In this document: positions 4,650-33,271 of the stretch, one piece after another
Layout: each line of letters starts with the position of its first letter
How positions within the stretch are numbered: position 1 is the first letter of the stretch
Source: Deltaproteobacteria bacterium
GTDB lineage: Bacteria > Desulfobacterota > Deferrimicrobia > J040
DNA: 64,000 bases
Direction: 5' to 3'
NCBI GenBank assembly: GCA_011773515.1
Contig: WVXK01000062.1
Coordinates: 68,751-132,750, forward strand
Notes under the pieces: model-generated
The model's input: the letters and a program-made list of their open reading frames with translations, nothing else
What the model was told of the DNA's origin: nothing
Databases searched by the model: none
Position numbers and translations under genes: made by a program

Positions 4650-4703
4650 GCTAATCACTGGAGAAACCTCCTCTTTTTTACCGTCGTCAATTATGAAAAC
4701 AAC

Positions 4704-4735
4704 AAAAAAAAACCCTCCCGGCAGGGCCGGGAGGG
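4704..4735 (-). terminator. rho-independent terminator after degP
   Basis: Minus strand CCCTCCCGGC-CCT-GCCGGGAGGG (perfect 10-bp GC stem) followed by a U9 run, 12 nt after the degP TAG stop. Confidence 0.8.
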
Positions 4736-4746
4736 GCTCGTGCCGG

Positions 4747-6192: not shown

Positions 6193-6230
6193 CGCAATCC
6201 ACCTCCTTTTATCGGGTAGACGCCCCTCAT

Positions 6231-8981: not shown

Positions 8982-8993
8982 GGCTCTTTACCC

Positions 8994-9851: not shown

Positions 9852-9896
9852 CTCTGTTCACCCCATTCTTGCATTTTTCGAAACCTGTTCCCCGAT

Positions 9897-10979: not shown

Positions 10980-11020
10980 CCGCCACTTCCTGTCGGTCCA
11001 GCTTTAAGTAAGATGAACCG

Positions 11021-11048
11021 AAAAAAAATAGGGTGCAGATTAAACCCT
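11021..11048 (-). terminator. probable rho-independent terminator between hsp20 and dnaJ
   Basis: Minus strand GAGGGT-ttaatctgc-ACCCT followed by U8; located 12 nt after the hsp20 stop. Short stem, so readthrough into dnaJ is likely. Confidence 0.55.
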
Positions 11049-11059
11049 CAACGCCTGGA

Positions 11060-11512
11060 TTACCCAGCGTTGATGTCTATCTTCTTGGGTCTCACCTCTT
11101 CTTTCTTCGGAAGAATGATCTCGAGGACGCCATCTTTGAACGTAGCCGATACCTTCTCCTGATCAATCTTGGAGTTCAGGGAAAAGGATCTCCTAAAGGA
11201 TCCATACTCGCGCTCCATGAGATGGAAATGCTCCTTGTCCACCTCTTTCTGATACTTCCTCTCGCCCCGTATCGTCAGGATCCCGTCCTTGACCTCGATG
11301 CTTACATCATCCCGGCCTATCCCGGGAAGCTCGGCTGTTACCATCACCTGTGAATCCGTTTCACATATATCCACAGAGGGTGACCAGACGCCTTTTCCCG
11401 GGACATCCTCCTTTTTCCGGGAGCCTCGAAATTTTTCTTCGAAGAGCCTGTTCATCCTGTCCTGAATTAGCGCAAGCTCCCTTAGAGGATCATACCACCT
11501 TACGATAGCCAT
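11060..11512 (-). CDS. small heat-shock protein (Hsp20/alpha-crystallin family)
   Basis: 150 aa; alpha-crystallin domain (AELPGIGRDDVSIEVKDGILTIRGER); AGGAGG RBS 7 nt upstream; only 27 bp downstream of dnaK. Confidence 0.9.
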   Translation of the reverse strand: MAIVRWYDPLRELALIQDRMNRLFEEKFRGSRKKEDVPGKGVWSPSVDICETDSQVMVTAELPGIGRDDVSIEVKDGILTIRGERKYQKEVDKEHFHLMEREYGSFRRSFSLNSKIDQEKVSATFKDGVLEIILPKKEEVRPKKIDINAG

Positions 11513-11539
11513 GACCTGAACCTCCTCTTGTCTTTATCG

Positions 11540-13462
11540 TCATGAACTCGACTTATCCTGATCTTCAAACTCCGCGTCGATAACATCGGAATCGCCCGCC
11601 GCTCCCTCACCGGACGGCTGAGACGCTGTCGCCTCTCCGGCTCCTTCTTCCGGCTCGGCTGTTTTTGCCTGCTTGTACATTATCTCCGCAATCTTGTGGG
11701 CCTCCTTCATCAGCTCGTCTGCAGCAGAGCGAAGGGCGTCTTCGTCATCCGACTTCAGCACTTCTTTTGCCCTGCTCAACCCATCTTCTGCTTTTGAGAC
11801 TTCATCCGGTGGCAGTTCAGAACGGTTCTCGTTCAAAGTCTTCTCTATGTTATAGATGAGGTTGTCGAGATTATTCCTGGCCTCGACGATCCTCCTTTGC
11901 TTTTTGTCCTCTTCAGAGTGAACTTCCGCTTCATCGACCATCCTCTTGATCTCCTCATCGGTTAGTCCCGTAGAGGACGTGACGGTTATCCTCTGTTCCT
12001 TGTTGGTTGCGAGGTCTTTCGCCGAAACATTGAGAATCCCGTTGGCGTCAATGTCGAAGGTCACCTCCACCTTGGGGATTCCCCTGGGTGCCGGGGGAAT
12101 ACCCTCGAGGTGAAATCGACCGAGGGTCCTGTTGGCCCTTGCCATTTCACGTTCACCCTGGAGAACGTGAATCTCCACCGATGTCTGGTTGTCGGCCGCA
12201 GTGGTAAATATCTCGCTCTTTTTGACCGGTATGGTCGTATTTCGCTCGGTAATTTTGGTCATTACGCCCCCGAGTGTCTCTATGCCGAGCGAGAGAGGAG
12301 TAACATCGAGGAGGAGAACGTCCTTGACCTCTCCGCCGAGGACGCCCGCCTGAACCGCCGCCCCGAGGGCAACGACTTCATCGGGGTTCACACCCTTGTG
12401 GGGCTCTTTTCCGAAGAAATTTTTGACCGCCTCCTGAACCTTGGGGATCCTGGTGGAGCCCCCGACGAGAATGATTTCATCGATGTCATCTCCCTTCAAG
12501 TCAGCATCGGAGAGGGCAAGCCTGCAGGGTTCAAGGGTACGCTCAACGATCTGTTCAATCATGGTTTCGAGCTTCGCCCTGGTCAATTTCATGCTGAGGT
12601 GTTTCGGTCCGGAAGCGTCTGCGGTGATAAACGGCAGGTTTATCTCCGTCTCGAGAACAGACGAGAGCTCGATCTTTGCTTTCTCGGCCGCTTCCTTCAG
12701 CCTCTGGAGAGCCATCTTGTCCTTGGACAGGTCTATTCCCTGGTCCTTCCTGAACTCCTCTATGATCCAGTCGATTACCCGCTGATCGATGTTGTCACCG
12801 CCAAGGTGCGTATCCCCGTTGGTCGCTTTCACCTCGACCACATTCTCTCCCACCTCGAGAATGGATATATCGAAGGTACCACCACCAAAATCATACACCG
12901 CTATGACCTCGTTCTTCTTCTTGTCCAGCCCGTATGCCAGTGCTGCAGCGGTGGGCTCGTTGATGATCCTCATCACCTCGAGGCCCGCGATGGTCCCGGC
13001 ATCTTTGGTTGCCTGCCGCTGCGAGTCGTTGAAGTATGCAGGAACGGTGATGACAGCTTTCTTGACCTCCTCGCCGAGATATGCCTCTGCGGCTTTTTTC
13101 AGCTTCCCCAGGACCATGGCCGATATCTGCTGTGGGGTGTAATCCTTGCCTGCAACCAGGATACGAGCGTCGTTGTTCGGCCCGCTCTGTACCTGGTACG
13201 GCACCATCTCTTTTTCTTCCTTTACCTCATCATGGCGCCGTCCCATGAATCGCTTTATCGAAAAGACGGTATTGTCCGGGTTCGTGATTGCCTGTCTTTT
13301 CGCTACCTGCCCGACAAGAACCTGCCCATCCTTTGCGAAAGCAACGACCGACGGGGTCAGCCTGGATCCCTCTTCATTGATGATGACTTTGGGCTCCCCA
13401 CCCTCCATCACCGCGACAACCGACATCGTGGTACCAAGGTCAATACCGATAATCTTTGACAT
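11540..13462 (-). CDS. dnaK: chaperone DnaK (Hsp70)
   Basis: 640 aa; [30 protein letters not shown], full NBD + SBD + lid; GGAGG RBS overlapped by the stop codon of the upstream REC gene. Confidence 0.97.
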
Positions 13463-13478
13463 CGCAAACCTCCGCTCT

Positions 13479-13862
13479 TTATTTTTTGGGCGTTCTGGTA
13501 ATCAACCGTGCGATAAACCGTGAAAGTGTCTCCGGATGGAGGGGCCTGGTGACGAAACCGACGGCACCAGACTCCAGAGCCCGCGTCCACCGCTCCAGAC
13601 TCCCACTTTCAGACATAAAAACCGAGGGGATCGAAGAGGTAATGTCCAGAAGGTTCCCCAGCGGATCATATCCACCGTAGGGTATGTCATCTAGGTCTAT
13701 GAGCGCCATGGAAAACCCGCCTTTTGCCCATTTCTGCCCAAAATCGAGAAGGTCGAGGCAGACCTCGGCTTCGATACCGAAAACACCGAGTTCCTCGACG
13801 AGCTCCCTTATCTCATCTCCCATCTCTTTCCTGCCTACTATGAGCAGAACCCTCGCAAACAT
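13479..13862 (-). CDS. stand-alone atypical receiver (REC/CheY-like) domain protein
   Basis: 127 aa; CheY-like spacing with phosphoacceptor-position Asp (MALIDLDD), Ser at beta4 (VFMSESG), but the acidic Mg-binding pair after beta1 is replaced (IVGRKE) and the beta5 Lys is Arg (VTRPL). GGAGG RBS; TAA stop at 13479-13481 lies inside the dnaK RBS. Confidence 0.75.
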
Positions 13863-13898
13863 TTCGAGATCCTCCAGGTATCCGCGTAGTGATAAGTT

Positions 13899-13913
13899 TC
13901 AAAAGTCATGCCA
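13899..13913 (-). promoter_or_regulatory. weak sigma-54-like -24/-12 element upstream of REC-dnaK (TGGCATG-N4-TTGA)
   Basis: Minus strand aattgTGGCATGacttTTGAaac. -24 GG present; -12 is GA rather than the consensus GC. About 25-nt leader to the REC ATG. Confidence 0.25.
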
Positions 13914-14011
13914 CAATTTGCTTTAGAAAAAAATTAACACAAGATACCGAAAAGAAATGGCTTTTACATTTTATGCCGATGATGGCAATCAGGGAAAGAC
14001 ACCGATGAGGC

Positions 14012-14044
14012 CTGCCAAAATGGCCTGGCGTGTCATTTTGGCAG
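14012..14044. promoter_or_regulatory. perfect 10-bp inverted repeat CTGCCAAAAT-N13-ATTTTGGCAG (candidate enhancer/operator)
   Basis: Seen directly; sits between the 3' end of the sigma-54 activator gene and the REC-dnaK start (~165 bp upstream of REC ATG); half-sites contain TGGCA. Confidence 0.5.
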
Positions 14045-14053
14045 ACCCTTTGC
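14038..14053 (+). promoter_or_regulatory. sigma-54-type -24/-12 motif TTGGCAG-accct-TTGC on plus strand (antisense to activator gene)
   Basis: GG-N10-GC spacing satisfied (GG 14040-41, GC 14052-53); overlaps right arm of the inverted repeat; would fire into the 3' end of the minus-strand activator gene. Confidence 0.3.
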
Positions 14054-14058
14054 CGACC

Positions 14059-15468
14059 TTACGGTAATCCGTATTCCTTGATCTTTCTGTAGAGGGTCCT
14101 CACTCCGATACCCAGCATCTTGGCCGCTTTTGTCTTGTTGTTTCCCGTTGCTTTCAAGGCTTCGATTATGGCATTTTTTTCAACCTCATCCAGCGGAATG
14201 ACCACGGCACCCCCATCGTCTTCAGCGGGGGATTCCACCCTTCCCGCGACGGGTATCGGATCCCTTCCTTCTCTGTACCGCTTTCTTTTGAGTTCGGTCG
14301 GGAGAACCTCTTTGGAGATAACCTCCCCCTCCGTGAGCAGAACCATGGATTCGATCACATTTCTCAACTCCCTCACGTTGCCCGGCCATGGGTACTGCTG
14401 AAAAACCCGCATCGCATCAGCCGAAATCCTCTTCTCCTCGAGACCGTTTTCCCTGCACAGGTTTTTTGTGAAATGGATCGCCAGGGTGGGTATATCCTCG
14501 GTTCTCTCTCTCAAAGGCGGAATATGTATCGTAAAGACGCTCAATCTGAAAAAGAGGTCTTCCCGAAACTTTTTCGACGAAACCAAGCCTCTCAGGTCAG
14601 AGTTCGTAGCGGCCACTATCCTCACGTCAACGTTGATGACCTTGCCTCCTCCGACTCTCAGGATCTCTTTCTGCTCGATTGCCCTGAGAAGCTTCGCCTG
14701 CGTCGAGAGAGTGAGGTCACCAATCTCATCGAGGAAGAGTGTCCCATCGGACGCAATTTCGAATTTTCCCTTTACCGCACCGACTGCGCCGGTGAATGCG
14801 CCTTTTTCATGGCCGAACAGTTCCGACTCAAGAATGCTTTCGGTGAGGGCGGCGCAGTTTATCGGCATAAAAAGTTTATCCTTCCGTGGGCTCATCTCGT
14901 GAATCGCACGCGCAACCAGCTCCTTCCCCGTGCCCGACTCACCGAGAATCAGGACGTTTGCCTTCGTGGGGGCGACCATGCGCACCATCTGCATTACCTT
15001 CTCCATTTCCCGCGACCGGTAGAGAATTTCACCGACTTCGGTTTTAACCAGTCTTCTCAGTGTCCCCAGCTCTTCCATCATCCCCCGAGCTCGAATCGTC
15101 TTGATCAGGACACCTTTCAGCTCTTCCATGTCAATGGGTTTTTGAAGGTAATCCGTCGCCCCTTCTTTGATTGCGTGGACTGCATTTCCGATCGTCCCGA
15201 AAGCCGTGAGGACGATTACCGGAGCGTGAGGATGGGCCTCTTTCACTTTCCTGATTACTTCCATGCCGTCTAAACCCGGCATTTTCATGTCTGTTATGAT
15301 TATGTCGCCCCCGGAATCATCGATGCGGGAGATAAACTCCAGGGGGGAATTGAAAAGCCTCACCTCGAAACCCAGGTTCGTAAGTGCCCTCCCGATGCTC
15401 GTGAGATTTTCTTTGTCATCATCGATAACCGTTACGCTTTTTCCGGAAAATTCCGGGAGCGATTTCAT
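14059..15468 (-). CDS. sigma-54-dependent response regulator (NtrC family: REC + AAA sigma-54 activator + Fis-type HTH)
   Basis: Track ORF extends to 15711 (alt start); true start ATG 15466-15468 (MKSLPEFSGKSVTVIDDDKEN) with GGAGG RBS. Canonical REC (DDD, D in IITDMKMPG, T, K); GESGTGKE Walker A, GAFTGA sigma-54 contact motif; C-terminal HTH AAKMLGIGVRTLYRKIKEYGL. Confidence 0.93.
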   Translation of the reverse strand: MKSLPEFSGKSVTVIDDDKENLTSIGRALTNLGFEVRLFNSPLEFISRIDDSGGDIIITDMKMPGLDGMEVIRKVKEAHPHAPVIVLTAFGTIGNAVHAIKEGATDYLQKPIDMEELKGVLIKTIRARGMMEELGTLRRLVKTEVGEILYRSREMEKVMQMVRMVAPTKANVLILGESGTGKELVARAIHEMSPRKDKLFMPINCAALTESILESELFGHEKGAFTGAVGAVKGKFEIASDGTLFLDEIGDLTLSTQAKLLRAIEQKEILRVGGGKVINVDVRIVAATNSDLRGLVSSKKFREDLFFRLSVFTIHIPPLRERTEDIPTLAIHFTKNLCRENGLEEKRISADAMRVFQQYPWPGNVRELRNVIESMVLLTEGEVISKEVLPTELKRKRYREGRDPIPVAGRVESPAEDDGGAVVIPLDEVEKNAIIEALKATGNNKTKAAKMLGIGVRTLYRKIKEYGLP

Positions 15469-16226
15469 TTCACAACCTCCGGAAGGTACCGCCCCCTCTG
15501 TTTCTTCGCCAACACCTCCCGGAAACTTTCCTCCGGAAGGAAAGAGAGGGTAAACTCCGTCCCCTTTCTCTTCCTGCTCCTTATGCGTACCTTGCCGTGA
15601 TGCTCCCTCATTATCCTCTTCACTATCGGCAAACCCAACCCGCTCCCTTCGGTCTTGGTCGTGTAAAACACCGAGAACACTTTTCCCCTGTCCTTCCTTT
15701 CGATCCCGCAACCGTTGTCCTTGACCTTTACGAAATAGAAATTCTCCTCTTTTCCCGTTGTCACCCTGATCGTCTTGTCCTCCTTGTCAAGCGATTCCGC
15801 AGCGTTTAAAAGCACGTTCAAAAGAGCCTGTTTCACCATTTTTTCATCGACGAGAACAGGAAAAGGAGCCTCGTCGGGCAAGTATCGCACCTTAATGTCC
15901 CTGCCACGAAAGTCGACCTCCACGAACCGGACCACTTCCTCGACAACCCTGTTTAGGTCAGTAACGACAAACTCCGGCTTCTTCGGGCGGGTCAGCCGCA
16001 AAAATTCCGAAACGATGTCGTTGAGCCTGTTCAAAACTCGAAGATTCGAGTCGATGATCTCCTGCATTTCTCCTTTCTTTTCAAACCACTCAGGCAGAAG
16101 AAACGTATATTCCGAGAGAAGCTGATTATTGATGCTCAGCGCATTGAGCGGATTTCGAATCTCATGGGCAATGCCGGACAGAGCCGATTCGAGCTCTTCC
16201 TGGGAAACTTTTTTTTTCCGGGCCAT
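15465..16226 (-). CDS. cytoplasmic histidine kinase lacking any sensor/TM domain (HisKA + HATPase_c only)
   Basis: 253 aa; H-box GIAHEIRNPLNAL begins ~17 aa from the N-terminus; G-boxes DNGCGIE, GSGLGLPIVKRIM. 4-nt overlap (ATGA) with the activator gene. Confidence 0.9.
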   Translation of the reverse strand: MARKKKVSQEELESALSGIAHEIRNPLNALSINNQLLSEYTFLLPEWFEKKGEMQEIIDSNLRVLNRLNDIVSEFLRLTRPKKPEFVVTDLNRVVEEVVRFVEVDFRGRDIKVRYLPDEAPFPVLVDEKMVKQALLNVLLNAAESLDKEDKTIRVTTGKEENFYFVKVKDNGCGIERKDRGKVFSVFYTTKTEGSGLGLPIVKRIMREHHGKVRIRSRKRKGTEFTLSFLPEESFREVLAKKQRGRYLPEVVK

Positions 16227-20463: not shown

Positions 20464-21912
20464 CTATCCCTTCACAACGAGAAGTGGCTTGAGTTTCGCC
20501 ACCTTTTCCGCAATGCCGAGCCTGTGCACGACCTCAACCACCTCCGACACATCCTTGTATGCTTCGGATACTTCCTCCAAGAGGGTTGCCCTCCCGGCCG
20601 CAAAAACCCTTATACCCCTCTTCAGGAGTTCACCCTTGATATCTCTTTTCCGGAACTGTCTCTTGGCGCTGGCCCTGGACATCGTTCTTCCCGCACCGTG
20701 GCAGGTGCTTCCGAAAGAAAGAGTCAGAGCATTCTCGGATCCCACGAGCACATATGAGCTTCGCCCCATATCTCCCGGTATGAGTACCGGCTGCCCCACG
20801 TCCCTGTATACCGGGGGAAGCTCGGGCCTTCCTGCAGGCAGTGAGCGGGTTGATCCTTTCCTGTGGACGAGGAGTTTCTTCTGTTTCCCTCCCACGTCGT
20901 GATTTTCTATCTTCACTATGTTGTGACCGCAGTCATACACGAGGTCCATCCCGAGTCCGGCAGGTCCCGTCTGGAGTACCTGCTGAAACGTCTCCCTCGT
21001 GAAGTGGCTGAGGACCTGCCTGTTGGCCCATGCATAATTTGCTGCACATGCGAGTCCCTTTAAATACCTTTTCCCCTCAGGTGATTGTATGTGCGCGCAG
21101 GCAAGCTGCCTGTCCGGAAGGTCGAGACCCTTTTCCCTCATGTATCTGACCATCTCGCCCAGGAAATCATCACACACCTGGTAACCGAAGCCTCGGGAGC
21201 CTGAGTGAACCTGGACGACAACCTGCCCCCCCCTCAAGCCGAAAGCATCGGCGGCTTCGGGGTTATATATCTCCTCAACCAGATCAATCTCGAGAAAATG
21301 GTTGCCCGAGCCGAGAGTTCCCAGCTGGTCTCTCCCTCTTTTCAGGGCTTTTTCGGAAACAACGTCGGGGTCGGCGCCGTGAAAAGTCCCCCCATCTTCC
21401 GTCCTTTCCAGGTCTTCCTCGGAACCGAACCCCTGCTTGACCACCCAGCGCGCACCCTGGCTGAGAACGTCTCTCTGCTCCGCCCTGCCGAGCCTTATCT
21501 TCCCCGTCGAGCCGACACCGGATGGTATGTTCGTAAAAAGCGCCGCTCCGAGCCTGTCCAGCTGTTGTTCAATGTCCTCGAGTTCGAGGTCGCTTCTCAA
21601 CAGCCTGCATCCGCAGTTGATGTCATATCCCACGCCCCCGGGGCTTATGACCCCCCTGTCCATGTCCATTGCCGCAACCCCACCGATGGGGAAACCGTAT
21701 CCGCGATGGATGTCGGGCATGGCAATGCTGTATTTTTCGATACCCGGAAGGTGCGCCACGTTCACAACCTGCCGGAGGCTATCATCCTTCACGATGTCCT
21801 GGAGCATTTCCCTGGAGGAAAACACAACACCGGGAACCTTCATTTTGCCGGCCTTTGGAATTTCCCACATGTAATCGTTTACTTTTACCAGCTCAATGCC
21901 TTCGAACTTCAT
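20464..21912 (-). CDS. rtcB: RNA-splicing ligase RtcB
   Basis: 482 aa; full-length RtcB with conserved metal/GTP-binding His/Cys residues. Confidence 0.95.
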   Translation of the reverse strand: MKFEGIELVKVNDYMWEIPKAGKMKVPGVVFSSREMLQDIVKDDSLRQVVNVAHLPGIEKYSIAMPDIHRGYGFPIGGVAAMDMDRGVISPGGVGYDINCGCRLLRSDLELEDIEQQLDRLGAALFTNIPSGVGSTGKIRLGRAEQRDVLSQGARWVVKQGFGSEEDLERTEDGGTFHGADPDVVSEKALKRGRDQLGTLGSGNHFLEIDLVEEIYNPEAADAFGLRGGQVVVQVHSGSRGFGYQVCDDFLGEMVRYMREKGLDLPDRQLACAHIQSPEGKRYLKGLACAANYAWANRQVLSHFTRETFQQVLQTGPAGLGMDLVYDCGHNIVKIENHDVGGKQKKLLVHRKGSTRSLPAGRPELPPVYRDVGQPVLIPGDMGRSSYVLVGSENALTLSFGSTCHGAGRTMSRASAKRQFRKRDIKGELLKRGIRVFAAGRATLLEEVSEAYKDVSEVVEVVHRLGIAEKVAKLKPLLVVKG

Positions 21913-21920
21913 GACTCCCC

Positions 21921-22340
21921 CTACACGTCGAGGATGAAGGTTGCCATGTACCCCTCAGCGCTTTTTTCGACCCTCAGGTCATGATAGGTTACCGCTTTAA
22001 TCTCAGTTTTGAGGACATGCCTGCCCTCGTGAAAAGGCTCTCCCCAGGCTTCCGGGCGGTATATACATTCGCCTCTCTCCAGCTTACCGTTTATGGATCT
22101 GATCAGGAAGCCCTCGCCGTAAAACTGAAAATGCACCCACCGCAGAAAGTTAAAGAAGAGATCCTCGATACCCGCGCCTTCTACGAAGGCCTCTTTTTTA
22201 CCGGCTTTCCTGACCCGCCTTCTGTCAACGATGATGCTCACCAGTGACTCCCCTGCCCGGGCAAACAGCTCCTCCAGCGACGCGGCCTCGATGAGAATCT
22301 TGAGGTCCGCCGTGTGGGGAAGGACCTTGTAGCCAGCCAT
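21921..22340 (-). CDS. archease (RtcB activator)
   Basis: 139 aa; MAGYKVLPHTADLKILIEAASLEELFARAGE... matches archease family; 8-nt gap to rtcB. Confidence 0.85.
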   Translation of the reverse strand: MAGYKVLPHTADLKILIEAASLEELFARAGESLVSIIVDRRRVRKAGKKEAFVEGAGIEDLFFNFLRWVHFQFYGEGFLIRSINGKLERGECIYRPEAWGEPFHEGRHVLKTEIKAVTYHDLRVEKSAEGYMATFILDV

Positions 22341-23080
22341 CAGTATCCAGCCTCGAGCCTCTCTGCCAGGAAGGGGGGCAAACCGGCGGTCATTATCTTT
22401 TCCTGGCAGGTTTTTATATCGTAGGGAGCCCTGACCCAGGTCACCACCATTTTATCCCGATCGAACATGACGTATGACGCCCTTACATCGCCGTCCCTTG
22501 GCTGTCCCGTCGAGCCGGGATTTACCAGGTAGCTCGAGTCCTCCTCCAGGGTGATGGATCCCTCTCCCCGATAGGAAGAAAATTTTCCGTCGGGGCCTAT
22601 CTTGTATGCCAGGGGAAAATGGGTGTGGCCAAAAAAACACACCTTCCTCTTGAGATTGCGTACCATGTACAATAACTCACTTTTAGCTGCCTCTTCGGAA
22701 AGGATATACCTGTCGGGATCCGAAGGGGCTCCGTGGACGATGAGTACGGTATCGTCAAAAACAACGGCGCTCCTCAACCTCTTGAGAAACTCCATGTTGG
22801 AGCGTTTCAGTACTTTCCTCGACCACATCACCGCCTCTTTCGCCACCCTGTTGAAGTGGGAGGGCTCGGTGTTACCGACAACGGCGCTGTCGTGGTTTCC
22901 CATGATCGCTATGCTGCACCTGTCTTTTACGATTTCACAGCACTGGTCGGGGTCGGCATTGTAACCGACAACATCGCCCAGACACCAGAGCTGCTCAGCG
23001 CCTCTTTTCTTCGCGTCCTCAACCACAGCCGTGAGGGCTTCAAGGTTGGAATGAACGTCCGATATGACGGCAACCTTCAT
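22340..23080 (-). CDS. calcineurin-like metallophosphoesterase (ApaH/PrpA-like)
   Basis: Track ORF to 23167; probable start MKVAVISDVHSN at 23080. Motifs DVHSN, GDVVGYNADP, GNHD, GHTH. 1-nt overlap with archease start. Confidence 0.85.
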   Translation of the reverse strand: MKVAVISDVHSNLEALTAVVEDAKKRGAEQLWCLGDVVGYNADPDQCCEIVKDRCSIAIMGNHDSAVVGNTEPSHFNRVAKEAVMWSRKVLKRSNMEFLKRLRSAVVFDDTVLIVHGAPSDPDRYILSEEAAKSELLYMVRNLKRKVCFFGHTHFPLAYKIGPDGKFSSYRGEGSITLEEDSSYLVNPGSTGQPRDGDVRASYVMFDRDKMVVTWVRAPYDIKTCQEKIMTAGLPPFLAERLEAGY

Positions 23081-23081
23081 T

Positions 23082-24347
23082 TCAGGAGACCCTGCCAGCC
23101 GGAACCACCCTTTCGCCTCCTCCGAAATCTCCGGCGATGTCCATGAATATCTCGAGGTCATACTCAATATCCCGGTGGGTTTCGTCGAAATAGAAAATCT
23201 TTATCGGCATCCCCCCAAGGTCCCCTGAGAGCTTGTAATAGATCGACTCAGATACGATTCCGTTCATACACGAGAAGGGACTTATGTCGATAACGCCCTT
23301 TGCCCCTTTTCGGTGATAGTAAACCGCTTTCCCGACGCTGAGAATCATCTCTCCCAGAGCCCCCCCCTGGGAGAGGTAGGGACTTGCGAGCCTGAGTATA
23401 TCCATCACGTCTCCGGGCTCCTCCCTTCCGATGAAAGTCTCTTTGAAGGGAGAGTAGAGCGCATGCTCTGTCTTTTTCTGGTAGTAATACTTCAGTTTGG
23501 CCGCAGCCATGTCCTTTGAAAAACCTTTTCCCAGCCTCTTTAAGCCCCTTTCGTTCTCCCTGTCCGTGTACCATATCCACTCGGCCACGTCGCTCTGCCA
23601 TGCCTCCCCTCCCAGCGCTTCGACTTTCCTGATGACATCCATGTTGCTGTACCTGTTCAGCCTGCAGAAAATCTCGCCGACTACACCGATGAGAGGTCTT
23701 TTTTCCCGCTTCACGGGCATGCGGTCGAAATCGTCCCTTATTTTCACAAAAGCCATCTTGAGATAACTGATGCACTTATCTGGCCGCTTCCCGTGGGCTC
23801 TTATGGTCTCGCATATTGCATCGAGAGCTATTTCGAAGAGCCTATCCGCCTCGCCCTCGTTGACCTCGTATGGCCTGTACATCAGCAGCAGTTTCCTCAA
23901 TATGTCGGCAGCCACGATCCCAAGCCAGGCAGGCTTCATGATCCTGCCGACGTATTTTTCAAAGCTTCCGTATCCGTCCTCGCAACTGGGGGAGATAATT
24001 TCCACGTCCCCGAGGCCGCTTTCGGCGAGTATTTTCTGCATGAATGGGGCATACTGCCCGAACCTGCAGGGGCCGTTCGATGTGGGGAACAAAATGGCCG
24101 TCTCCTCGGGTTTGTGCCCATCGACGAGAAAGAGTTTCAATATGTCTCCCGCCGTGATCTTCAGGGGATAACACTCCTCGCCGGAAGCATGCATCGCTCC
24201 CAGTTCCTGGGTCTTCTCATCGGAGGGCCCGATGACCCTGCCGTCCAGGTTAAGAGACTGCAGAACCGCCGCCATGGCCCTCGCTCCAGTGTAGGTCATG
24301 GGATGGATGAAAATTTTTCGATTCTCAAGCCCTCTTTGCTTCACCAT
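23082..24347 (-). CDS. DUF2229 / COG3581-like protein, partner of CoA-substrate-specific enzyme activase proteins
   Basis: 421 aa; resembles the uncharacterized partner family usually encoded next to BadF/HgdC-HgdB fusion proteins; alternative start at 24299 (MTYTGARAM). Confidence 0.6.
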   Translation of the reverse strand: MVKQRGLENRKIFIHPMTYTGARAMAAVLQSLNLDGRVIGPSDEKTQELGAMHASGEECYPLKITAGDILKLFLVDGHKPEETAILFPTSNGPCRFGQYAPFMQKILAESGLGDVEIISPSCEDGYGSFEKYVGRIMKPAWLGIVAADILRKLLLMYRPYEVNEGEADRLFEIALDAICETIRAHGKRPDKCISYLKMAFVKIRDDFDRMPVKREKRPLIGVVGEIFCRLNRYSNMDVIRKVEALGGEAWQSDVAEWIWYTDRENERGLKRLGKGFSKDMAAAKLKYYYQKKTEHALYSPFKETFIGREEPGDVMDILRLASPYLSQGGALGEMILSVGKAVYYHRKGAKGVIDISPFSCMNGIVSESIYYKLSGDLGGMPIKIFYFDETHRDIEYDLEIFMDIAGDFGGGERVVPAGRVS

Positions 24348-27300
24348 CTCTCCACCACCTCATCACACCTCTGCTATCCAGGTGTGCCTCTATTCGGGTC
24401 ATGTACCCGGCGTCGTTGCCGTGCCCGTCAAACTGAAGTATCAGGAAGGGCCTGCCTGAAGCCTGCTCAATGTAATGGCGGATAAAAGAGTCGGGACCGC
24501 AATTGAAGTTGGTTATGAAGATGACGCTCATGTTTTCCCTGTCCTTTGCCCACCTGGCGGCCTTGATCAGCTTGCCCCCGAGGTTCCAGAACATATTCCA
24601 GTTCAGATCGTGGATGTCGATATCATCAAGGTGCGGGATAAACTCATAGGGGACGACATCCAGCCCGTAGTGCTCCCTGATTTTTGAGGGAATATTGAGG
24701 TTCATCTCCCTGTCGTAGATATTGTAGGGCCTTCCCAGCAGCAATATGGCCTTGCCCCCATTTGCATCGATCTCTCTCAGCGCCCTTTCTCCTGCCCCCC
24801 TGATCTTTTCCAGGAACTCGTCATAACTCTCGTACCCTGATTGTATGGCGTCCCGTATGGCCGACTTTTTCCAGCCGAATTTTCTGAAAGAACTGTACAG
24901 GTCATTCGTCACGAACTTTTCCCCGTCCCGGAAATATATCGTTGGGGATAGAACCTTTGAATTCATGTATTTAGCAAGCTCGGGGTTCGCTGAAACCACA
25001 AAGGGCAGGGTTTGTCCCCACGGGCAGTAATGGGTTTCCGTCGTTTTCTTTCTGTACTCGGCGTTTATTACGTTTGGAAGGAAATAGAAATCCGCGTCTT
25101 CCATCTCCTTCATCATGAAAGATACATGACCCAGGGCGGCTTTGACGGGAAAACAGGGCTCTGAGAGAGAGACATCGAAGCCCTTTTCTGCGATCCTTCT
25201 CGAGGTGTTTGGCGTCGCCCTGAGAGAAACATCGAGGTGTTTGAAAAAACCATGCCAGAAGGGAAATCTCTCGTAAAAGTAGAGGGACCGCGGAACAGCA
25301 GCCAGATATTTCCCTCTCTCACCACCCTCGTCGAGGTAACCGTTCAAGAGGGAAACCTTGTACGCCAGGAGGTCTTCCGATTTCGGCCTGACCGGTACCT
25401 TAGGCGGCTTTCTGAAGCGCTCCGAGCACTTATCTCCCCAGTAGGTCTTTTCCCCTTCGATGGTAATCTCCTTTACCTCGCATTCGTTTGAGCACCCCTT
25501 ACAGAGGAACTCTCTTCGGTCGAGCCTCAATCCATCCAGGTCAAATCCTCTGAACTTGGTAACCTCGCCCACCCTCTCGAACTTCTCCTTTGCCACGAGT
25601 GCGGCTCCAATCGCCCCCATGACCCCGTTATGGGGAGGGACTATTACCTGTTTCCCCAGTATTATGGAAAAAGCGGCGGCAACAGAGTCGTTGTAGGCCG
25701 TCCCTCCCTGGAAAAATATCCTCTCTCCCAGGGGCCTTCCTCTCACGACTCTGTTCAGGTAATTGATGACGACCGCGTATGCGAGCCCTGCAACGATGTC
25801 TTCCTTCACCGCCCCCTTCTTCATGAAGCTGCTCACGTCCTGCTCCATGAATACCGTGCACCGCTCTCCGAGCCGAAGGGGATTTTTAGAGGAGAAGGCG
25901 AGCGCGGCAAATTCGTCCTTAATTTTCACCCCTATTTTTGTCGCCTGCTCCTCGAGGAACGAGCCCGTTCCCGCAGCACAGGCATCGTTCATGGCAAAAT
26001 CGACGACGACACCGTCCCTTATGGATATGAATTTCGAATCCTGGCCGCCGATCTCGAAAATAGTATCCACCCTGCTTCCGAAGGACTGCATGGAAACAAA
26101 TGATGCGCCCGTCTTGTGGGCGGTGATCTCATCGATGATCACATCGGCCCCCACGAGTTCGCCGATCAACTCCCTTCCCGAACCGGTAGTCGCAATCCCC
26201 CGAACGTGAACCTTCCCCTGCAGTTTGCCGCCCAATTCCCTCATGTTTTTCGAAACCACGTAAACGGGTCTTCCATCGGTGCCGACATACACCTCCTCGA
26301 TAACTTTCCCATCGTTGTCCACCACGGCAAAGTTCGTGCTCACCGATCCCACGTCTATGCCGATGAAGACATCCCTTCCCGGGATGGCAGCCATTTCATG
26401 AGCAGCCCTGTTCTCGTTATTTCTCAGAAAGACGACATTGTCCCGGACCAGAGGGGGCTGGGATTGCGTGCTCCTTTGCTGCGCTGCCACTTTTATTCCT
26501 TTCTCTCTGAGAACCGGCTCTTCCGCCTCCTTGCATTTTCCCGACACGAGCATCGCAACGCCCGCAGCAGAGTAGTGGCGGTAGTGGGGGGGACGGATAA
26601 TATCCCCTTCCCTCAACTGGAACGTTTCTACCAGGGCGTCAAATACGCCTCTGTTTCCCGCCACACCGCCGAGAAAGAGCACCGGAGGGACCAGCTTTCT
26701 TCCCCGGAACACGTTGCTCTTGAAGTTCCTCGCGACGGCGATCATGAGCCCTTTCAATATCTGCTCGGGAGTGGCTCCCTTTTGCTGGGCGTGAACCATG
26801 TCCGTCTTCGCAAATACCGAACATCTTCCCGCTATCCGGGCCGCATGCTTCACGTCTCTTACATTTTCCCCGATAGTTTCCACTTCGACTTTCATCCTCG
26901 ACGCCTGCTGATCTATGAAAGATCCCGTTCCCGCTGCACATTCTCCATTCGTTCCGTACTCGTCTATGATGAGCTGTCCTTCCTTTTCCCTCTTGAGGCT
27001 TATGAACTTAGAGGTCTCGGCACCAATTTCAAAAACGGCATTGGCTTCAGGGAAGCATTCCGAAACTGCGCTCGCTATCGAACCAAATTCGTTTTCATAG
27101 TAGCCTCCGAAATGATTCGCAACAGTTTTTCCCAATCTCCCCGTCGAACAGAGGATCACCTGACAGCCGATTTTATCCAGCATATCGAGGCAGGTTCGCA
27201 AATGGTCCTCGACGGTCTTCAGAGGCTCGCCGAAAAACCTGACGCATTCCAGGAAGTAAACCCTTCCCCGGGAAACATCAAGATATCCCGTGTGGGGAGG

Positions 27301-27393
27301 TATTGAACCGGGTGGAAAATGAGTATCTGCAGGGATGAGCAGTGACGATTTGAGATAGGACGTCCCCGCATCTATCCCCAGGTATGCCCGCAT
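24325..27393 (-). CDS. CoA-substrate-specific enzyme activase fusion: two BadF/BadG/BcrA/BcrD (HgdC-like) ATPase domains + 2-hydroxyglutaryl-CoA dehydratase D-component (HgdB-like) domain
   Basis: 1022 aa; two ASKHA activase modules (IDAGTSYLK...; IGIDVGSVSTNFAVVD...FEIGGQDSKFI) followed by an HgdB-like C-terminal region with a Cys motif (CKGCSNECEV). Confidence 0.85.
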   Translation of the reverse strand: MRAYLGIDAGTSYLKSSLLIPADTHFPPGSIPPHTGYLDVSRGRVYFLECVRFFGEPLKTVEDHLRTCLDMLDKIGCQVILCSTGRLGKTVANHFGGYYENEFGSIASAVSECFPEANAVFEIGAETSKFISLKREKEGQLIIDEYGTNGECAAGTGSFIDQQASRMKVEVETIGENVRDVKHAARIAGRCSVFAKTDMVHAQQKGATPEQILKGLMIAVARNFKSNVFRGRKLVPPVLFLGGVAGNRGVFDALVETFQLREGDIIRPPHYRHYSAAGVAMLVSGKCKEAEEPVLREKGIKVAAQQRSTQSQPPLVRDNVVFLRNNENRAAHEMAAIPGRDVFIGIDVGSVSTNFAVVDNDGKVIEEVYVGTDGRPVYVVSKNMRELGGKLQGKVHVRGIATTGSGRELIGELVGADVIIDEITAHKTGASFVSMQSFGSRVDTIFEIGGQDSKFISIRDGVVVDFAMNDACAAGTGSFLEEQATKIGVKIKDEFAALAFSSKNPLRLGERCTVFMEQDVSSFMKKGAVKEDIVAGLAYAVVINYLNRVVRGRPLGERIFFQGGTAYNDSVAAAFSIILGKQVIVPPHNGVMGAIGAALVAKEKFERVGEVTKFRGFDLDGLRLDRREFLCKGCSNECEVKEITIEGEKTYWGDKCSERFRKPPKVPVRPKSEDLLAYKVSLLNGYLDEGGERGKYLAAVPRSLYFYERFPFWHGFFKHLDVSLRATPNTSRRIAEKGFDVSLSEPCFPVKAALGHVSFMMKEMEDADFYFLPNVINAEYRKKTTETHYCPWGQTLPFVVSANPELAKYMNSKVLSPTIYFRDGEKFVTNDLYSSFRKFGWKKSAIRDAIQSGYESYDEFLEKIRGAGERALREIDANGGKAILLLGRPYNIYDREMNLNIPSKIREHYGLDVVPYEFIPHLDDIDIHDLNWNMFWNLGGKLIKAARWAKDRENMSVIFITNFNCGPDSFIRHYIEQASGRPFLILQFDGHGNDAGYMTRIEAHLDSRGVMRWWRDGEAKRA

Positions 27394-27480
27394 CTTACCC
27401 TCCTCCTGTGTATACCAGTTAAATATAGTATTTTACCCCACTCAAGGCAGAGTTTGCATCTCAAGAGAAAAAAAAATCAT

Positions 27481-27499
27481 CGGGAAAAAGTTTTTCCCG
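27481..27499. promoter_or_regulatory. palindrome CGGGAAAAA-G-TTTTTCCCG in divergent promoter region (activase operon / tatB)
   Basis: Perfect 9-bp arms with 1-nt centre, seen directly; position suits an operator in the bidirectional promoter region. Confidence 0.3.
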
Positions 27500-27647
27500 G
27501 TACGGCCGACTCCCGCCATTTTTTTATCCCGGAAGACCGACATATCCCGCCGAGGCCCTCTCTCCATTGAATCCGGGGAAAATATATTCCCAAATACCGG
27601 CTGTTTGGATTTATAATTACAGGTGCAACTCAAATTTCGGGGGAGAG

Positions 27648-27995
27648 ATGTTTGGAATCGGATTTCAAGAAATCCTCCTGATTCTTCTTATTGCCCTCAT
27701 TTTTTTCGGGCCCAAGAAATTGCCTGACCTCGCAAGGAGCCTGGGCAAAGGGTTTGCAGAATTCAAAAAAGCAGCTGACGAAGTCAAGAAAAGCTTCGAG
27801 GATGTTGTCGAGGAGGAAGAGCTGAAATCGGAGTTGAAGGAAGAGATGGAAAAATTGAGGGAATTGGGCAACGACATTCACAGAGAAGTCAAAAAGGATG
27901 TAGGAGACCTGGAGAAAGCACTGGATCACAAGGAAGAGGATGAAGAGAAGGCCGATGGGTTAGGGAAGGAGTCCAGCTCCCCCGATGAAGGATGA
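27648..27995 (+). CDS. tatB: twin-arginine translocase subunit TatB-like (TatA/B family with long acidic C-terminus)
   Basis: Track ORF from 27567; true start [42 protein letters not shown] (TatA/B signature), 115 aa; immediately followed by tatC. Confidence 0.85.
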
Positions 27996-31424: not shown

Positions 31425-32414
31425 TCACCTCTCCTCCACCGTTTCCTCTATTTTCATCCCGAAGTGCCTCGCCCCATCATCCAGGTAGCACATGACCTCC
31501 GTTCCCCTCCTGATGTCGGCTATTGATATCTGCTCGCCCTGGGGGGAAACGAGCCGTATCGTTTCCGCGTTCTGAAGTATCGCCGAAACTTCCCTCCCCT
31601 CAACGTCTCCCTTGACCAGGATAAGGGGCCTTTTCTCTATCTTCGACCGGCCGACCCAGGCAACCTCGCCGGTCCCATCGCTTCCAACGGTGAGAACCTG
31701 GCTTCCTGCAGAGATTTCCGAGAGATAGCCCGTCCTCCCCGATGGCAGCAGCGTGTACATATGCACGGCACCGGCATTCACCCTGAAGGGCCTCTCACTC
31801 ACATACTCTGATGCCACATTCTCCGCAGAGACAAGGAAAAAGCCCCGCGAGGAGTTACCTACGAGCATGCCGACAGCACCTCTCATAAGTGTGCAGGTGT
31901 CAACGCAAACTCTGTCGCCCAGCCCCAGGACGGTCACCTCGGTGATGACCCCTTTTCTCAGATCAAGGGATATCTTCCATTCATCGAACCGGGAAAGAAG
32001 GAAGGAGAGATCACCGGGGGAATGCAGATCAAAAAGGATCCCCCACACGCCCTTTTCGAGGACTCCCGAAAAAACCCGGAGGTCGTCTTCGCTCTTCACC
32101 GGCACGATGACCTTTTTCCCCATTGCCACGAGGTTTTCGAGGGGAATGATCTCATTTCTCTTCGCCTCGATGTAAATCAACGTGTCGGGCGGAAGGGACT
32201 CTATCTCTTCGAGGTTTCCCCGGTCTTTAATCTCGCAGACCATGAAGTCCACGCCGGGCCTGACGTCTCCGCTATTTGCCACAACCGTTACCCTTCCCAG
32301 TTTTTTTACCTCCGTGACAGACTCTTCGGGGACCCAGAACGTCGATACCCCCCGCTCGAGAGCAAAGGTTATTATTTCTTTGTCATACGGTATGCTCCTT
32401 ACCCAGAACTCCAT
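31425..32414 (-). CDS. 3-dehydroquinate synthase II (archaeal-type, AroB')
   Basis: 329 aa; family COG1465-like (MEFWVRS...VVANSGDVRPGVDFMVCEIKDRG...); adjacent to an AroA'-like DhnA aldolase. Confidence 0.8.
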   Translation of the reverse strand: MEFWVRSIPYDKEIITFALERGVSTFWVPEESVTEVKKLGRVTVVANSGDVRPGVDFMVCEIKDRGNLEEIESLPPDTLIYIEAKRNEIIPLENLVAMGKKVIVPVKSEDDLRVFSGVLEKGVWGILFDLHSPGDLSFLLSRFDEWKISLDLRKGVITEVTVLGLGDRVCVDTCTLMRGAVGMLVGNSSRGFFLVSAENVASEYVSERPFRVNAGAVHMYTLLPSGRTGYLSEISAGSQVLTVGSDGTGEVAWVGRSKIEKRPLILVKGDVEGREVSAILQNAETIRLVSPQGEQISIADIRRGTEVMCYLDDGARHFGMKIEETVEER

Positions 32415-32415
32415 C

Positions 32416-33216
32416 TCAAACTCCCTTTTTAAGGAACTTCATTGCCTCCTCGGCGGGCCTGCCGTTGTGCACGATCTCTGAAATTGCTCTCATCATTTCC
32501 GTCGGCATGTCGTGCTGGAAGACGTTTCTCCCGATGGAAACACCTGCCCCACCCGCAGCTATTGCCTCCTGAACCATCTTCAGCACCTCAAAATCACTGC
32601 TCATTTTCTCGCCCCCCGCAATAACGATCGGGATTGCGCACCCCTTTACAACCTCACTGAATGTCTCGGCCGAGCCGGTGTAGGGAACCTTTACGATATC
32701 GGCACCCATCTCGGCAGCGACTCTCGCGGCGTGCTTGACATATTTATGGTCGTACTGATTCGAAATTTTTGGCCCCCTCGTGTACATCATCGCCAGGAGC
32801 GGCATTCCCCACAGCTGGCAGGACGATGATACCCTGCCGAAATCGGATAACATTTCAGCTTCGTCGTCGGCACCCAGATTAATGTGGATGGATACTGCGT
32901 CGGCACCAAGCCGTATAGCGTCTTCTGTCGTTGCCACGAGGATTTTTCTGTTCGCATCCGGGGCAAGGTTCGTGGAAGCAGAAAGGTGGATGATGAGTCC
33001 TAGGTCTTTGCCATACCCCCGGTGGCCGAACATCGCCCCGCCCCGGTGAACGACCGCTGCATTCGCTCCCCCCTCGGCAATCAAATTGGCCGCCCGGGAA
33101 ACATCGACCAGGCCATCTATCGGACCCACCGTGAGTCCGTGGTCCAGAGGCACGATAACGGTTTTCCCGGTATTTCTGTCGATAATCCTTTCCAGCCGAA
33201 CCCTTTTACCTATCAT
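32416..33216 (-). CDS. 2-amino-3,7-dideoxy-D-threo-hept-6-ulosonate synthase (AroA', DhnA-type class I aldolase family)
   Basis: Track ORF to 33252 (GTG); better start ATG 33214-16 ([11 protein letters not shown]) with GGAGG RBS. DhnA-family class I aldolase with Schiff-base Lys context ADIVKVPY. Confidence 0.8.
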
Positions 33217-33241
33217 TTCCCGCCTCCAGAATTTCCTCAAT

Positions 33242-33271
33242 AAAAAAACCACCGGTTTTTGGCCCCGGTGG
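33242..33271 (-). terminator. rho-independent terminator after the GspE_N-PilT gene
   Basis: Minus strand CCACCGG-ggccaaaaa-CCGGTGG followed by U7; between the pilT-like stop (33393) and the aroA' start. Confidence 0.75.

Follow-up and report, generated by a model that had tools for sequence, protein, structure and literature searches.

How should a run of five tightly packed bacterial genes be understood when it joins an ATPase-linked, reductase-like pair and a metallophosphoesterase to the RNA ligase RtcB and its activator archease: as one machine, or as separate functions that are merely neighbours? We examined this question at a locus of a Deferrimicrobiaceae-related MAG, within an analysed stretch of DNA of 64 kb (hereafter the window), for which a sequence-only reading had suggested a composite RNA repair or modification system. 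The minus strand at 20464-27393 carries five genes with products of 1022, 421, 246, 139 and 482 aa (ORF list), which are numbered here from the upstream end together with the region that precedes them:

27394..27650, no strand assigned: intergenic region from which gene 1 and tatA diverge, probable promoter region of the unit (sequence)
24325..27393, minus strand: gene 1, probable large subunit of PlsA/Ger type, 1022 aa (Pfam, NCBIfam and PDB matches, BBD architecture)
23082..24347, minus strand: gene 2, probable PlsR-like second catalytic subunit, 421 aa (PF09989 in homologues, AlphaFold model, Foldseek, hhalign)
22340..23080, minus strand: gene 3, binuclear metallophosphoesterase, 246 aa (Pfam Metallophos_2 and Metallophos, invariant motifs)
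21921..22340, minus strand: gene 4, archease, the RtcB activator, 139 aa (PF01951, PDB 4N2P)
20464..21912, minus strand: gene 5, RtcB RNA ligase of the archaeal/eukaryal-length type, without intein, 482 aa (PF01139, PDB)

The close packing reported earlier, with gaps of at most 8 nt or overlaps of up to 23 nt, was confirmed from the sequence, the four junctions measuring -23, +1, -1 and +8 nt. Genes 1 and 2 (24325-27393 and 23082-24347) overlap by 23 nt, the TGA of gene 2 is followed after one base by the phosphoesterase ATG, the phosphoesterase and archease genes meet in a TGATG with a 1-nt overlap, and the archease TAG is separated from the rtcB ATG by GGGGAGTC (8 nt, Shine-Dalgarno-like). 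The ORF call for gene 3 had been 22340-23167; its true start is the ATG at 23080, which gives the 246-aa protein and matches the public gene calls for the contig. Divergent tatA (plus strand, from about 27651) and tatC border the unit on one side and convergent moaA on the other. A minus-strand ORF at 27630-27929 was rejected as tatA, which lies on the plus strand, and an archaeal or mobile origin of the region was rejected in view of flat base composition and bacterial housekeeping flanks. The tight spacing is nothing special and is the norm of this genome: gaps of at most 10 nt or overlaps are found in 17 of the 35 other same-strand neighbour pairs of the window, a count that rests on crude longest-ORF calls. 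In a compact genome, genes may lie this close without sharing a function.

The gene identities given in the sequence-only reading proved largely right, except that DUF2229 lies inside the 1022-aa protein and the 421-aa protein has no Pfam match of its own. Gene 1 matches PF01869 (BcrAD_BadFG) in two stretches (218 bits) and PF09989 (DUF2229) at residues 700-917 (166 bits), and NCBIfam recognises a CoA_E_activ domain. In its layout, two fused BcrAD/BadFG ATPase domains are joined to a DUF2229 catalytic half through a Cys-rich linker (CKGCSNEC...C); the CAAGTGSF and RC(S/T)VF cysteines are present in both ATPase domains, and the ATPase part matches HgdC, HadI, MbdQ and DCCP-R in the PDB. Two BcrAD_BadFG domains followed by DUF2229 make up the BBD architecture described for Ger and PlsA (PMC13159169). 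A PDB sequence search with the 421-aa gene 2 protein returned nothing meaningful. Its homologues show weak PF09989 matches, hhalign finds it weakly paralogous to the DUF2229 half of gene 1 (with shared ExC[FY]PxK and Cx[FW]GQ motifs), and the best Foldseek matches of its AlphaFold model (pLDDT 84.5) are DCCP, BzdNO, MbdON and HadBC (probability 1.00, TM about 0.43). Because of these weak matches among homologues and the resemblance of the model to the catalytic subunits of DCCP, benzoyl-CoA reductase and HadBC, gene 2 is best taken as a second DUF2229/HgdB-like subunit, with an HgdA/B-like fold and four cysteines (C59, C94, C228 and C360) that are invariant across 55 homologues.

The genomic context of homologues adds to this picture. 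In locus L008, from another lineage, homologues of genes 1 and 2 (45% and 52% identical, respectively) directly precede a gene that scores 498.7 bits against the NCBIfam model 'tetraether lipid synthase Tes' (cutoff 450), and in a Phycisphaerae locus (L010) the same two radical-SAM Pfam architectures and a small ORF lie downstream of the gene-2 homologue (Pfam only). The window itself contains no membrane-lipid neighbours of the pair. From architecture, fold and homologue context, genes 1 and 2 are probably a split PlsA/PlsR- or Ger-type enzyme, a lipid ester-to-ether reductase. The family to which they had been assigned was earlier called functionally unassigned, a description that no longer applies, as it corresponds to the PlsA/PlsR/Ger enzymes with a role in lipid ester-to-ether conversion (PMC9702350, PMC13159169, PMC12838417); PlsA and Ger are themselves indistinguishable by sequence (PMC13274423). 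The lipid assignment rests on these three lines. As members of the benzoyl-CoA reductase/2-hydroxyacyl-CoA dehydratase family, the two proteins would use the fused ATPase domains of gene 1 to drive, at the expense of ATP, a low-potential electron into a pair of DUF2229/HgdB-like catalytic halves that carry Fe-S centres. Judged from the same architecture, fold and context, their most likely reaction is the anoxic reduction of membrane glycerolipids at the sn-1 acyl ester, giving an alkyl or vinyl ether.

At the other end of the unit, the RNA ligase module is complete. The rtcBA genes of E. coli are under sigma-54 control, with RtcR as the activator. As stated in the sequence-only reading, rtcA and rtcR are absent: a scan of about 45 ORFs across the 64-kb window revealed neither an RtcA nor an RtcR domain, and the only sigma-54 activator (14059-15711) is of the NtrC type with a receiver domain. 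Gene 5 covers profile positions 1-426 of 426 of PF01139 (570.6 bits), is about 60% identical to P. horikoshii RtcB (E 1e-169) and matches T. thermophilus TTHA1785 with E 1.5e-159. The motifs GYDINCG, GSGNHFLE, HSGSRG, GHNI and STCHGAGR are conserved in alignment with 7LFQ/1UC2; we take the metal ligands and guanylylated His of the P. horikoshii enzyme to be D95, C98, H203, H234, H329 and H404. All catalytic residues are present, and gene 5 is predicted on this basis to be an active ligase. Gene 4 matches PF01951 over profile positions 1-136 of 136 (116 bits), and in the PDB it is closest to the P. horikoshii archease 4N2P. It retains counterparts of His9, Asp12, Lys117 and Asp141, and HTAD, KAVTYHD and a C-terminal ...ILDV align with 4N2P; activation of RtcB needs these four residues, Asp141 being the near-C-terminal carboxylate (PMC3973293). 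RtcB would join RNA 3'-phosphate or 2',3'-cyclic-phosphate ends to 5'-OH ends via RtcB-GMP, with archease accelerating the guanylylation.

The pairing of archease with a bacterial rtcB had been presented as unusual, and this is not borne out. In the window archease immediately precedes rtcB in the same orientation, 8 nt away, and it is likewise the gene directly upstream in 30 of the 44 metagenomic RtcB loci having upstream sequence. The pair is a published operon, the 'tRNA splicing operon', known from P. horikoshii and with bacterial examples in Pelobacter propionicus, Syntrophus aciditrophicus and Synechococcus (PMC3973293).

Between the two modules, gene 3 has the Pfam domains Metallophos_2 and Metallophos (PF12850/PF00149, 78 bits) and carries the DxH, GD, GNH(D/E), H and GHxH motifs of calcineurin-like metallophosphoesterases, with D8, H10, D36, N62-H63-D64, H116 and H152/H154 invariant in an alignment of 30 homologues. 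In the PDB it is closest to the uncharacterised 3RQZ (E 6e-45) and, among characterised proteins, to the SapH Ap4A hydrolase 3QFM (E 3e-8). We found at least 596 relatives in many phyla. Among 80 loci of homologues from other genomes of many phyla, neither RtcB nor archease occurs within 9 kb in any, a plsAR-like pair is present in only one, and ORF clustering yielded no recurrent neighbour, no ORF family occurring in more than 9 of the 80. In L013 the phosphoesterase adjoins moaA and PBP1, without plsAR and without archease-rtcB. Conversely, 28 RtcB loci extend at least 2.5 kb upstream, and neither the phosphoesterase nor a PlsR-like gene was found in any of them. Gene 3 is a widespread stand-alone binuclear metallophosphoesterase, independent of RtcB.

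These counts bear directly on the suggestion that the phosphoesterase heals RNA ends for RtcB, processing 2',3'-cyclic or 3'-phosphate ends for the archease-RtcB pair while genes 1 and 2 merely lie upstream. The 1-nt overlap with archease fits such a triad, as does the position of the phosphoesterase directly upstream of archease wherever both genes occur, yet the association recurs in neither direction across lineages (0 of 80 and 0 of 28 loci), the closest relative of known function hydrolyses Ap4A, and in L028 the phosphoesterase remains with plsAR where archease and rtcB are missing. As cited in PMC3973293, Tanaka et al. 2011 describe RtcB as having its own cyclic phosphodiesterase step and requiring the 3'-phosphate, so that it needs no end healing and a phosphatase would be counter-productive, destroying the substrate. 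We consider such a triad very unlikely.

Whether the unit as a whole is held together by function can be judged from its conservation. The full cluster was seen in eight loci (L001, L003, L006, L007, L009, L163, L164 and L166), each also with tatAC upstream and PBP1 downstream, and two further cluster loci (L002 and L092) are truncated by the contig end. Order, strand and mostly tight junctions are kept while the PlsR-like protein diverges to 48% identity, which is compatible with selection for co-expression. A distant branch of the lineage has a sixth gene in the cluster, an extra methyltransferase. The sequence-only reading had named missing conservation of the linkage in related genomes as evidence that would speak against it; the linkage is in fact conserved there, and it is absent beyond a single Deferrimicrobiaceae-related lineage, where the flanking genes show the same degree of synteny. 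Among its members rtcB has decayed in one organism and is missing together with archease in another, genes 1-3 remaining intact: of rtcB, L004 and L005 keep no more than a remnant, and in L028 plsA-plsR-phosphoesterase abuts PBP1 with neither archease nor rtcB. Outside this lineage, the nearest homologues of genes 1 and 2 stand beside Tes-type lipid synthases or unrelated genes, never beside RtcB.

The composite RNA repair or modification system proposed earlier, with RNA or a nucleotide as the substrate of an ATP-driven radical enzyme (genes 1 and 2) working alongside the phosphoesterase, archease and RtcB, fares poorly against this record. Physical linkage within one lineage is its sole support, whereas rtcB has been lost or has decayed while genes 1-3 persist and is dispensable in the lineage, the flanks are as syntenic as the cluster, characterised family members act on glycerolipids, homologues elsewhere keep the company just described, and a literature search found RtcB and BcrAD_BadFG together in no paper. 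We regard this system as highly improbable; that this radical enzyme acts on RNA is likewise highly improbable, and much less likely than the selected stress operon considered below.

The intergenic region 27394..27650 contains a TAAAATACTAT block common to the window and L001. An Rfam scan of the window returned tRNA-Gln only, with no leader RNA before the five-gene unit, and a promoter and terminator scan gave nothing above shuffled expectation, the sole sigma-70-like match inside the unit lying at 24961-24933 (9/12). No sigma-54 consensus was found upstream of gene 1 in the window or its closest relatives. In a distant sub-lineage (L009, L163 and L164), gene 1 is preceded, at a distance of about 70 nt, by a conserved sigma-54-like GGCAC-N5-TTGAA. 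This putative element has the same form as one before the dnaK operon of the window, beside the NtrC-type activator, and it recalls the sigma-54 control of E. coli rtcBA.

A rival reading is a stress operon in which ether-lipid formation (as membrane hardening), the phosphoesterase and RNA ligation are driven from one promoter against heat, starvation or damage while remaining separate chemistries. Order and tight junctions conserved across the lineage, the sigma-54-like element of the three loci with its dnaK-like form, and the mild up-regulation of T. maritima ger towards stationary phase (PMC13159169) argue for it, and are countered by the absence of that element from the window and its closest relatives, the loss or decay of rtcB in members that keep genes 1-3, and housekeeping flanks that are as syntenic as the cluster. 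We think such an operon unlikely. Its more specific form, a selected unit possibly driven by sigma-54 in some members, in which anaerobic ether-lipid remodelling is combined with archease-RtcB repair and the phosphoesterase serves one of the two, is in our estimate distinctly unlikely. If the stress reading were true, membrane remodelling in anaerobes would be tied to RNA repair in a way that can be tested.

Since the modules occur together in one lineage only, the locus is better read as an ordinary mixed gene cluster than as a new RNA-repair machine. We consider it likely that the five genes form a probably co-transcribed unit of a Deferrimicrobiaceae-related MAG that combines three evolutionarily independent modules in a lineage-specific mixed operon, the modules having become neighbours through lineage-specific gene order in a compact genome and not as components of a single machine. 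All three belong to families already described, their juxtaposition is specific to the lineage, and the find matters little. The annotation 'CoA-substrate-specific enzyme activase / DUF2229' is now better understood to mean a lipid ester reductase of PlsA/PlsR/Ger type. The ability to form ether lipids probably exists in uncultured Deferrimicrobiaceae-related bacteria, a point of relevance to the search for where bacterial ether and tetraether lipids come from.

Among known ether-lipid enzymes, genes 1 and 2 resemble in layout the plasmalogen synthase PlsA/PlsR of Clostridium perfringens (CPE1194/1195; Jackson et al. 2021, as described in PMC9702350 and PMC12838417). [quoted passage not shown] The likeness is one of described architecture, the host here is no Firmicute, and the product of genes 1 and 2 may be a vinyl or alkyl ether. 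The glycerol ester reductase Ger of Thermotoga maritima (Tmari_0479) and Desulfatibacillum alkenivorans, with many homologues reported in 'deltaproteobacteria', likewise has two BcrAD_BadFG domains followed by DUF2229 (BBD...), as in gene 1, and the 'BB' architecture correlates with alkyl-ether producers (PMC13159169). Ger is a single fused polypeptide, whereas the window enzyme is split into 1022 aa and 421 aa, and unlike Ger its C-terminal half (gene 2) has no HGD-D Pfam match but shows weak DUF2229 similarity and an HgdB-like fold. Of the phosphoesterase relatives, 3RQZ shares full-length similarity and the complete calcineurin-type metal-binding motifs, whereas SapH/Spr1479 (3QFM), an Ap4A hydrolase and phosphodiesterase, is only distantly similar. 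E. coli rtcBA has in common with the window an RtcB-family RNA ligase, and differs in that the window has no rtcA or RtcR and its RtcB is the longer archaeal type (482 aa). The archease-rtcB operons of P. horikoshii and bacteria are arranged as in the window, archease and then rtcB on one strand; unlike those published pairs, the pair described here is embedded downstream of three unrelated genes.

The five genes of the unit all lie on the minus strand, and the public gene calls for the contig give identical lengths for each of them.

Open reading frames of the five-gene unit
24325-27393, minus strand: gene 1, plsA-like, 1022 aa
23082-24347, minus strand: gene 2, plsR-like, 421 aa
22340-23167, minus strand: gene 3, phosphoesterase, family match from the ATG at 23080 (246 aa)
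21921-22340, minus strand: gene 4, archease, 139 aa
20464-21912, minus strand: gene 5, rtcB, 482 aa

Read from the sequence, genes 1 and 2 overlap by 23 nt, a single nucleotide separates gene 2 from the phosphoesterase gene, the phosphoesterase and archease genes overlap by 1 nt (TGATG), and an 8-nt spacer including GGGGAG precedes rtcB; together with the list of ORFs these junctions bear out the packing described in the sequence-only reading. Upstream, a 257-nt spacer precedes a divergent tatA-tatC pair, and downstream lies a convergent moaA, so the five genes form a complete co-directional unit, probably carried on one transcript because there is no intergenic space for promoters. Such packing is not distinctive in the window: gaps of ≤10 nt or overlaps were found in 17 of the 35 other same-strand neighbour pairs (crude longest-ORF calls), and equally tight pairs without an obvious functional link occur in hisG/DUF2400 and recA/PilT-like ATPase/recX/alaS. 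In the latter stretch (43163-48456), which has 4- and 20-nt overlaps, a PilT-like T2SSE ATPase gene interrupts the usual recA-recX-alaS group. Elsewhere (31425-33252), a DHQS-II gene adjoins a DeoC-type aldolase gene, a pair also conserved in L004 and L006, two syntenic relatives; the two enzymes make up an alternative, archaeal-type entry to the shikimate pathway.

Gene 1 encodes two BcrAD_BadFG ATPase domains and one DUF2229 domain. Among solved structures, the activators HgdC and HadI match its ATPase part, as do MbdQ and DCCP-R, and each ATPase domain contains the cysteine motifs CAAGTGSF and RC(S/T)VF, which we take to form an inter-subunit [4Fe-4S] site as in HgdC. Gene 2 itself has no Pfam or NCBIfam match; its homologues show weak PF09989 matches, and four cysteines are invariant across 55 homologues. 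The only significant PDB matches of its AlphaFold model (pLDDT 84.5) were catalytic subunits of DCCP, benzoyl-CoA reductase (BzdNO, MbdON) and 2-hydroxyisocaproyl-CoA dehydratase (probability 1.00, TM about 0.43), and hhalign gave weak paralogy, with two common Cys motifs, between gene 2 and the DUF2229 half of gene 1. Together these features indicate the layout Act1-Act2-Red1 plus Red2, and by architecture and modelled fold the pair is predicted to belong to the PlsA/PlsR-Ger family.

Twelve gene 2 homologues were examined in their contigs. Outside the lineage (the Deferrimicrobiaceae-related bacteria carrying the full cluster), homologues 45–52% identical adjoin genes other than phosphoesterase-archease-rtcB. 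In the locus L008 (3752-12180), after the gene 1 and gene 2 homologues come a Zn-ribbon radical SAM gene, a ~164-aa small ORF and a radical SAM/SPASM gene, and the first of these three, directly after the gene 2 homologue, scores 498.7 bits against the NCBIfam model ‘tetraether lipid synthase Tes’ (cutoff 450). This neighbour lends independent support to the proposed role of genes 1 and 2 in membrane lipids. The same two radical-SAM architectures, judged by Pfam architecture only, and a small ORF lie downstream of the gene 2 homologue in the Phycisphaerae locus L010 (7001-12416). The set found beside these homologues, the closest to gene 2 from two other lineages, is a possible gene cluster for bacterial ether or tetraether lipids. 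At 5849-8290 of L010 the PlsR-like gene has no adjacent BcrAD_BadFG ATPase gene, and a 333-aa protein without a family match is encoded upstream of it. A Latescibacterota homologue (L165) has unrelated neighbours, and one from Bryobacterales (L011) has unrelated genes upstream and a contig end ~200 nt downstream.

Gene 4 encodes a full-length archease in which the residues that mutagenesis has shown RtcB activation to require are conserved, and gene 5 a full-length, intein-free RtcB of archaeal type with every catalytic motif present; the two have all tested features of an archease-rtcB operon. In a metagenome scan yielding 70 loci (RtcB 49–82% identical), archease lay directly upstream on the same strand in 30 of the 44 loci with ≥600 nt upstream. 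This pairing is the usual arrangement for archaeal-type RtcB, contrary to the earlier suggestion that it is unusual in bacteria. The phosphoesterase or a PlsR-like gene was found in none of the 28 RtcB loci with ≥2.5 kb upstream, and the only cluster-bearing locus of the set (L092, 81% identity) is from the same lineage.

Gene 3, by family match and motif alignment a complete calcineurin-type metallophosphoesterase, has the uncharacterised 3RQZ as its best solved relative, and its sequence places it with the 3RQZ-type enzymes. Scanning one genome per species yielded at least 596 relatives in many phyla, including Planctomycetota, Acidobacteriota, Chloroflexota, Actinomycetota and Verrucomicrobiota (including Akkermansia). 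By searching the best 80 of these ≥596 loci (36–43% identity, with ≤9 kb of sequence to either side) with the window proteins by tblastn, we found RtcB or archease in none, a plsAR-like pair in one (L028), and no recurrent neighbour, the largest ORF cluster occurring in ≤9 loci. In a Thermodesulfobacteriota locus (L013), the phosphoesterase gene has the orientation seen in the window, facing moaA and the PBP gene, with neither plsAR nor archease-rtcB nearby and with unrelated genes upstream. On these observations the phosphoesterase is a common gene independent of the other modules. The sequence-only reading had cast it as a possible RNA end-healing partner of RtcB, but a healing-and-sealing triad with archease and RtcB is very unlikely given its absence from both the 80 phosphoesterase loci and the 28 RtcB loci. 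Moreover, RtcB accepts ends with a 2',3'-cyclic phosphate or a 3'-phosphate as they are and itself carries out a cyclic phosphodiesterase step, according to the passage of PMC3973293 that cites Tanaka et al. 2011; it does not require a healing enzyme, and the action of a 3'-phosphatase would deprive it of its substrate.

The complete five-gene order was found in seven related loci (L001, L003, L006, L007, L009, L163 and L164) and in L166, labelled Candidatus Deferrimicrobiaceae, while at L002 and L092 a contig end interrupts it; gene 2 identity across cluster-bearing loci falls from 93% to 48%. Wherever flanks are present on the contig, tatA/tatC lie upstream and a class A PBP gene downstream, so conservation of the cluster does not exceed that of the housekeeping synteny around it. 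In L004 and L005, which represent one organism (gene 2 63% identical), genes 1–3 are intact, archease is divergent at 39% identity (and just 105 aa long in the public gene call for L005), and rtcB is a remnant of ~105–135 residues in the ~660 nt before the PBP gene (L004 11408-12087; L005 10240-11095). In L028, tatC, plsA-like, plsR-like and phosphoesterase genes are present, the last abutting the PBP gene, and archease and rtcB were not found within 9 kb. The linkage of activase-DUF2229 with rtcB-archease thus does recur in relatives, but in one lineage only and with breaks in L004, L005 and L028; that the activase-type enzyme, phosphoesterase, archease and RtcB act together on RNA we regard as extremely improbable. 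A more distant branch has a sixth gene within ~10 nt after rtcB, absent from the window.

Sixth gene after rtcB (246 aa)
L009 11072-11812
L163 10984-11724
L164 10959-11699
L166 9620-10360

Its product is a class I SAM methyltransferase (Methyltransf_25/11 matches, weak UbiE and CMAS matches) that could be RNA- or lipid-directed.

In the distant sub-lineage (L009 3895, L163 3907, L164 3900), a sigma-54-like element, GGCAC-N5-TTGAA, is conserved ~70 nt ahead of gene 1, and GGCAT-N5-TTGAA precedes the small-ORF/dnaK operon of the window, beside an NtrC-type sigma-54 activator.

Sigma-54-like element upstream of the small-ORF/dnaK operon, window and close relatives (overall form, with the gene 1 sites, GGCA[CT]-N5-TTGA[AT])
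Window 13912, minus strand
L001 15709
L092 9209

The likeness would fit a co-regulated stress operon, but neither the window nor its nearer relatives have the element ahead of gene 1, and we consider this explanation unlikely. L009, L163 and L164 also have the palindrome TATCCGATCGGATA in common in their tatA-plsA spacers. The heat-shock block itself (window 2070-15711, minus strand) comprises two ClpB-type ATPases, DUF1844, an M48 (HtpX-like) peptidase, dnaJ, hsp20, dnaK and the small ORF, preceded by the NtrC-type sigma-54 response regulator (14059-15711).

The analysis established which genes are present, their architecture, the conservation of catalytic residues, the gene 2 fold as a model, and how the linkage is distributed; the evidence indicates an ordinary mixed operon. 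We consider it likely that genes 1 and 2 encode an ATP-driven, Fe-S-dependent reductase that would form ether bonds in membrane glycerolipids, that archease and RtcB ligate broken RNA, and that the phosphoesterase acts on an unrelated substrate, possibly a nucleotide, with the packing resulting from compaction and lineage history. None of the papers searched contains both RtcB and BcrAD_BadFG, so this lineage-specific juxtaposition appears undescribed.

Each of the three modules looks, by sequence, like a further member of a described family. The unit is not of the E. coli rtcBA/rtcR type: as the earlier reading had noted, rtcA and rtcR are absent, with no RtcA or RtcR domain in the ~45 window ORFs scanned. 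The nearest characterised relative of gene 3 is SapH, an Ap4A hydrolase and phosphodiesterase, only at E 3e-8. The description of the activase family as functionally unassigned is out of date, since under anoxia the sn-1 ester of glycerolipids becomes a vinyl ether through PlsA/PlsR and an alkyl ether through Ger (PMC12838417; PMC13159169; bioRxiv 10.64898/2026.06.23.733905). Sequence cannot yet separate PlsA from Ger, and a correlation links the two-ATPase ‘BB’ form to alkyl-ether producers (PMC13274423). The Act1-Act2-Red1 plus Red2 layout of genes 1 and 2 is the one reported for C. perfringens PlsA/PlsR (PMC12838417), whereas in Ger and the single-gene PlsA enzymes it is fused (PMC13159169; bioRxiv 10.64898/2026.06.23.733905).
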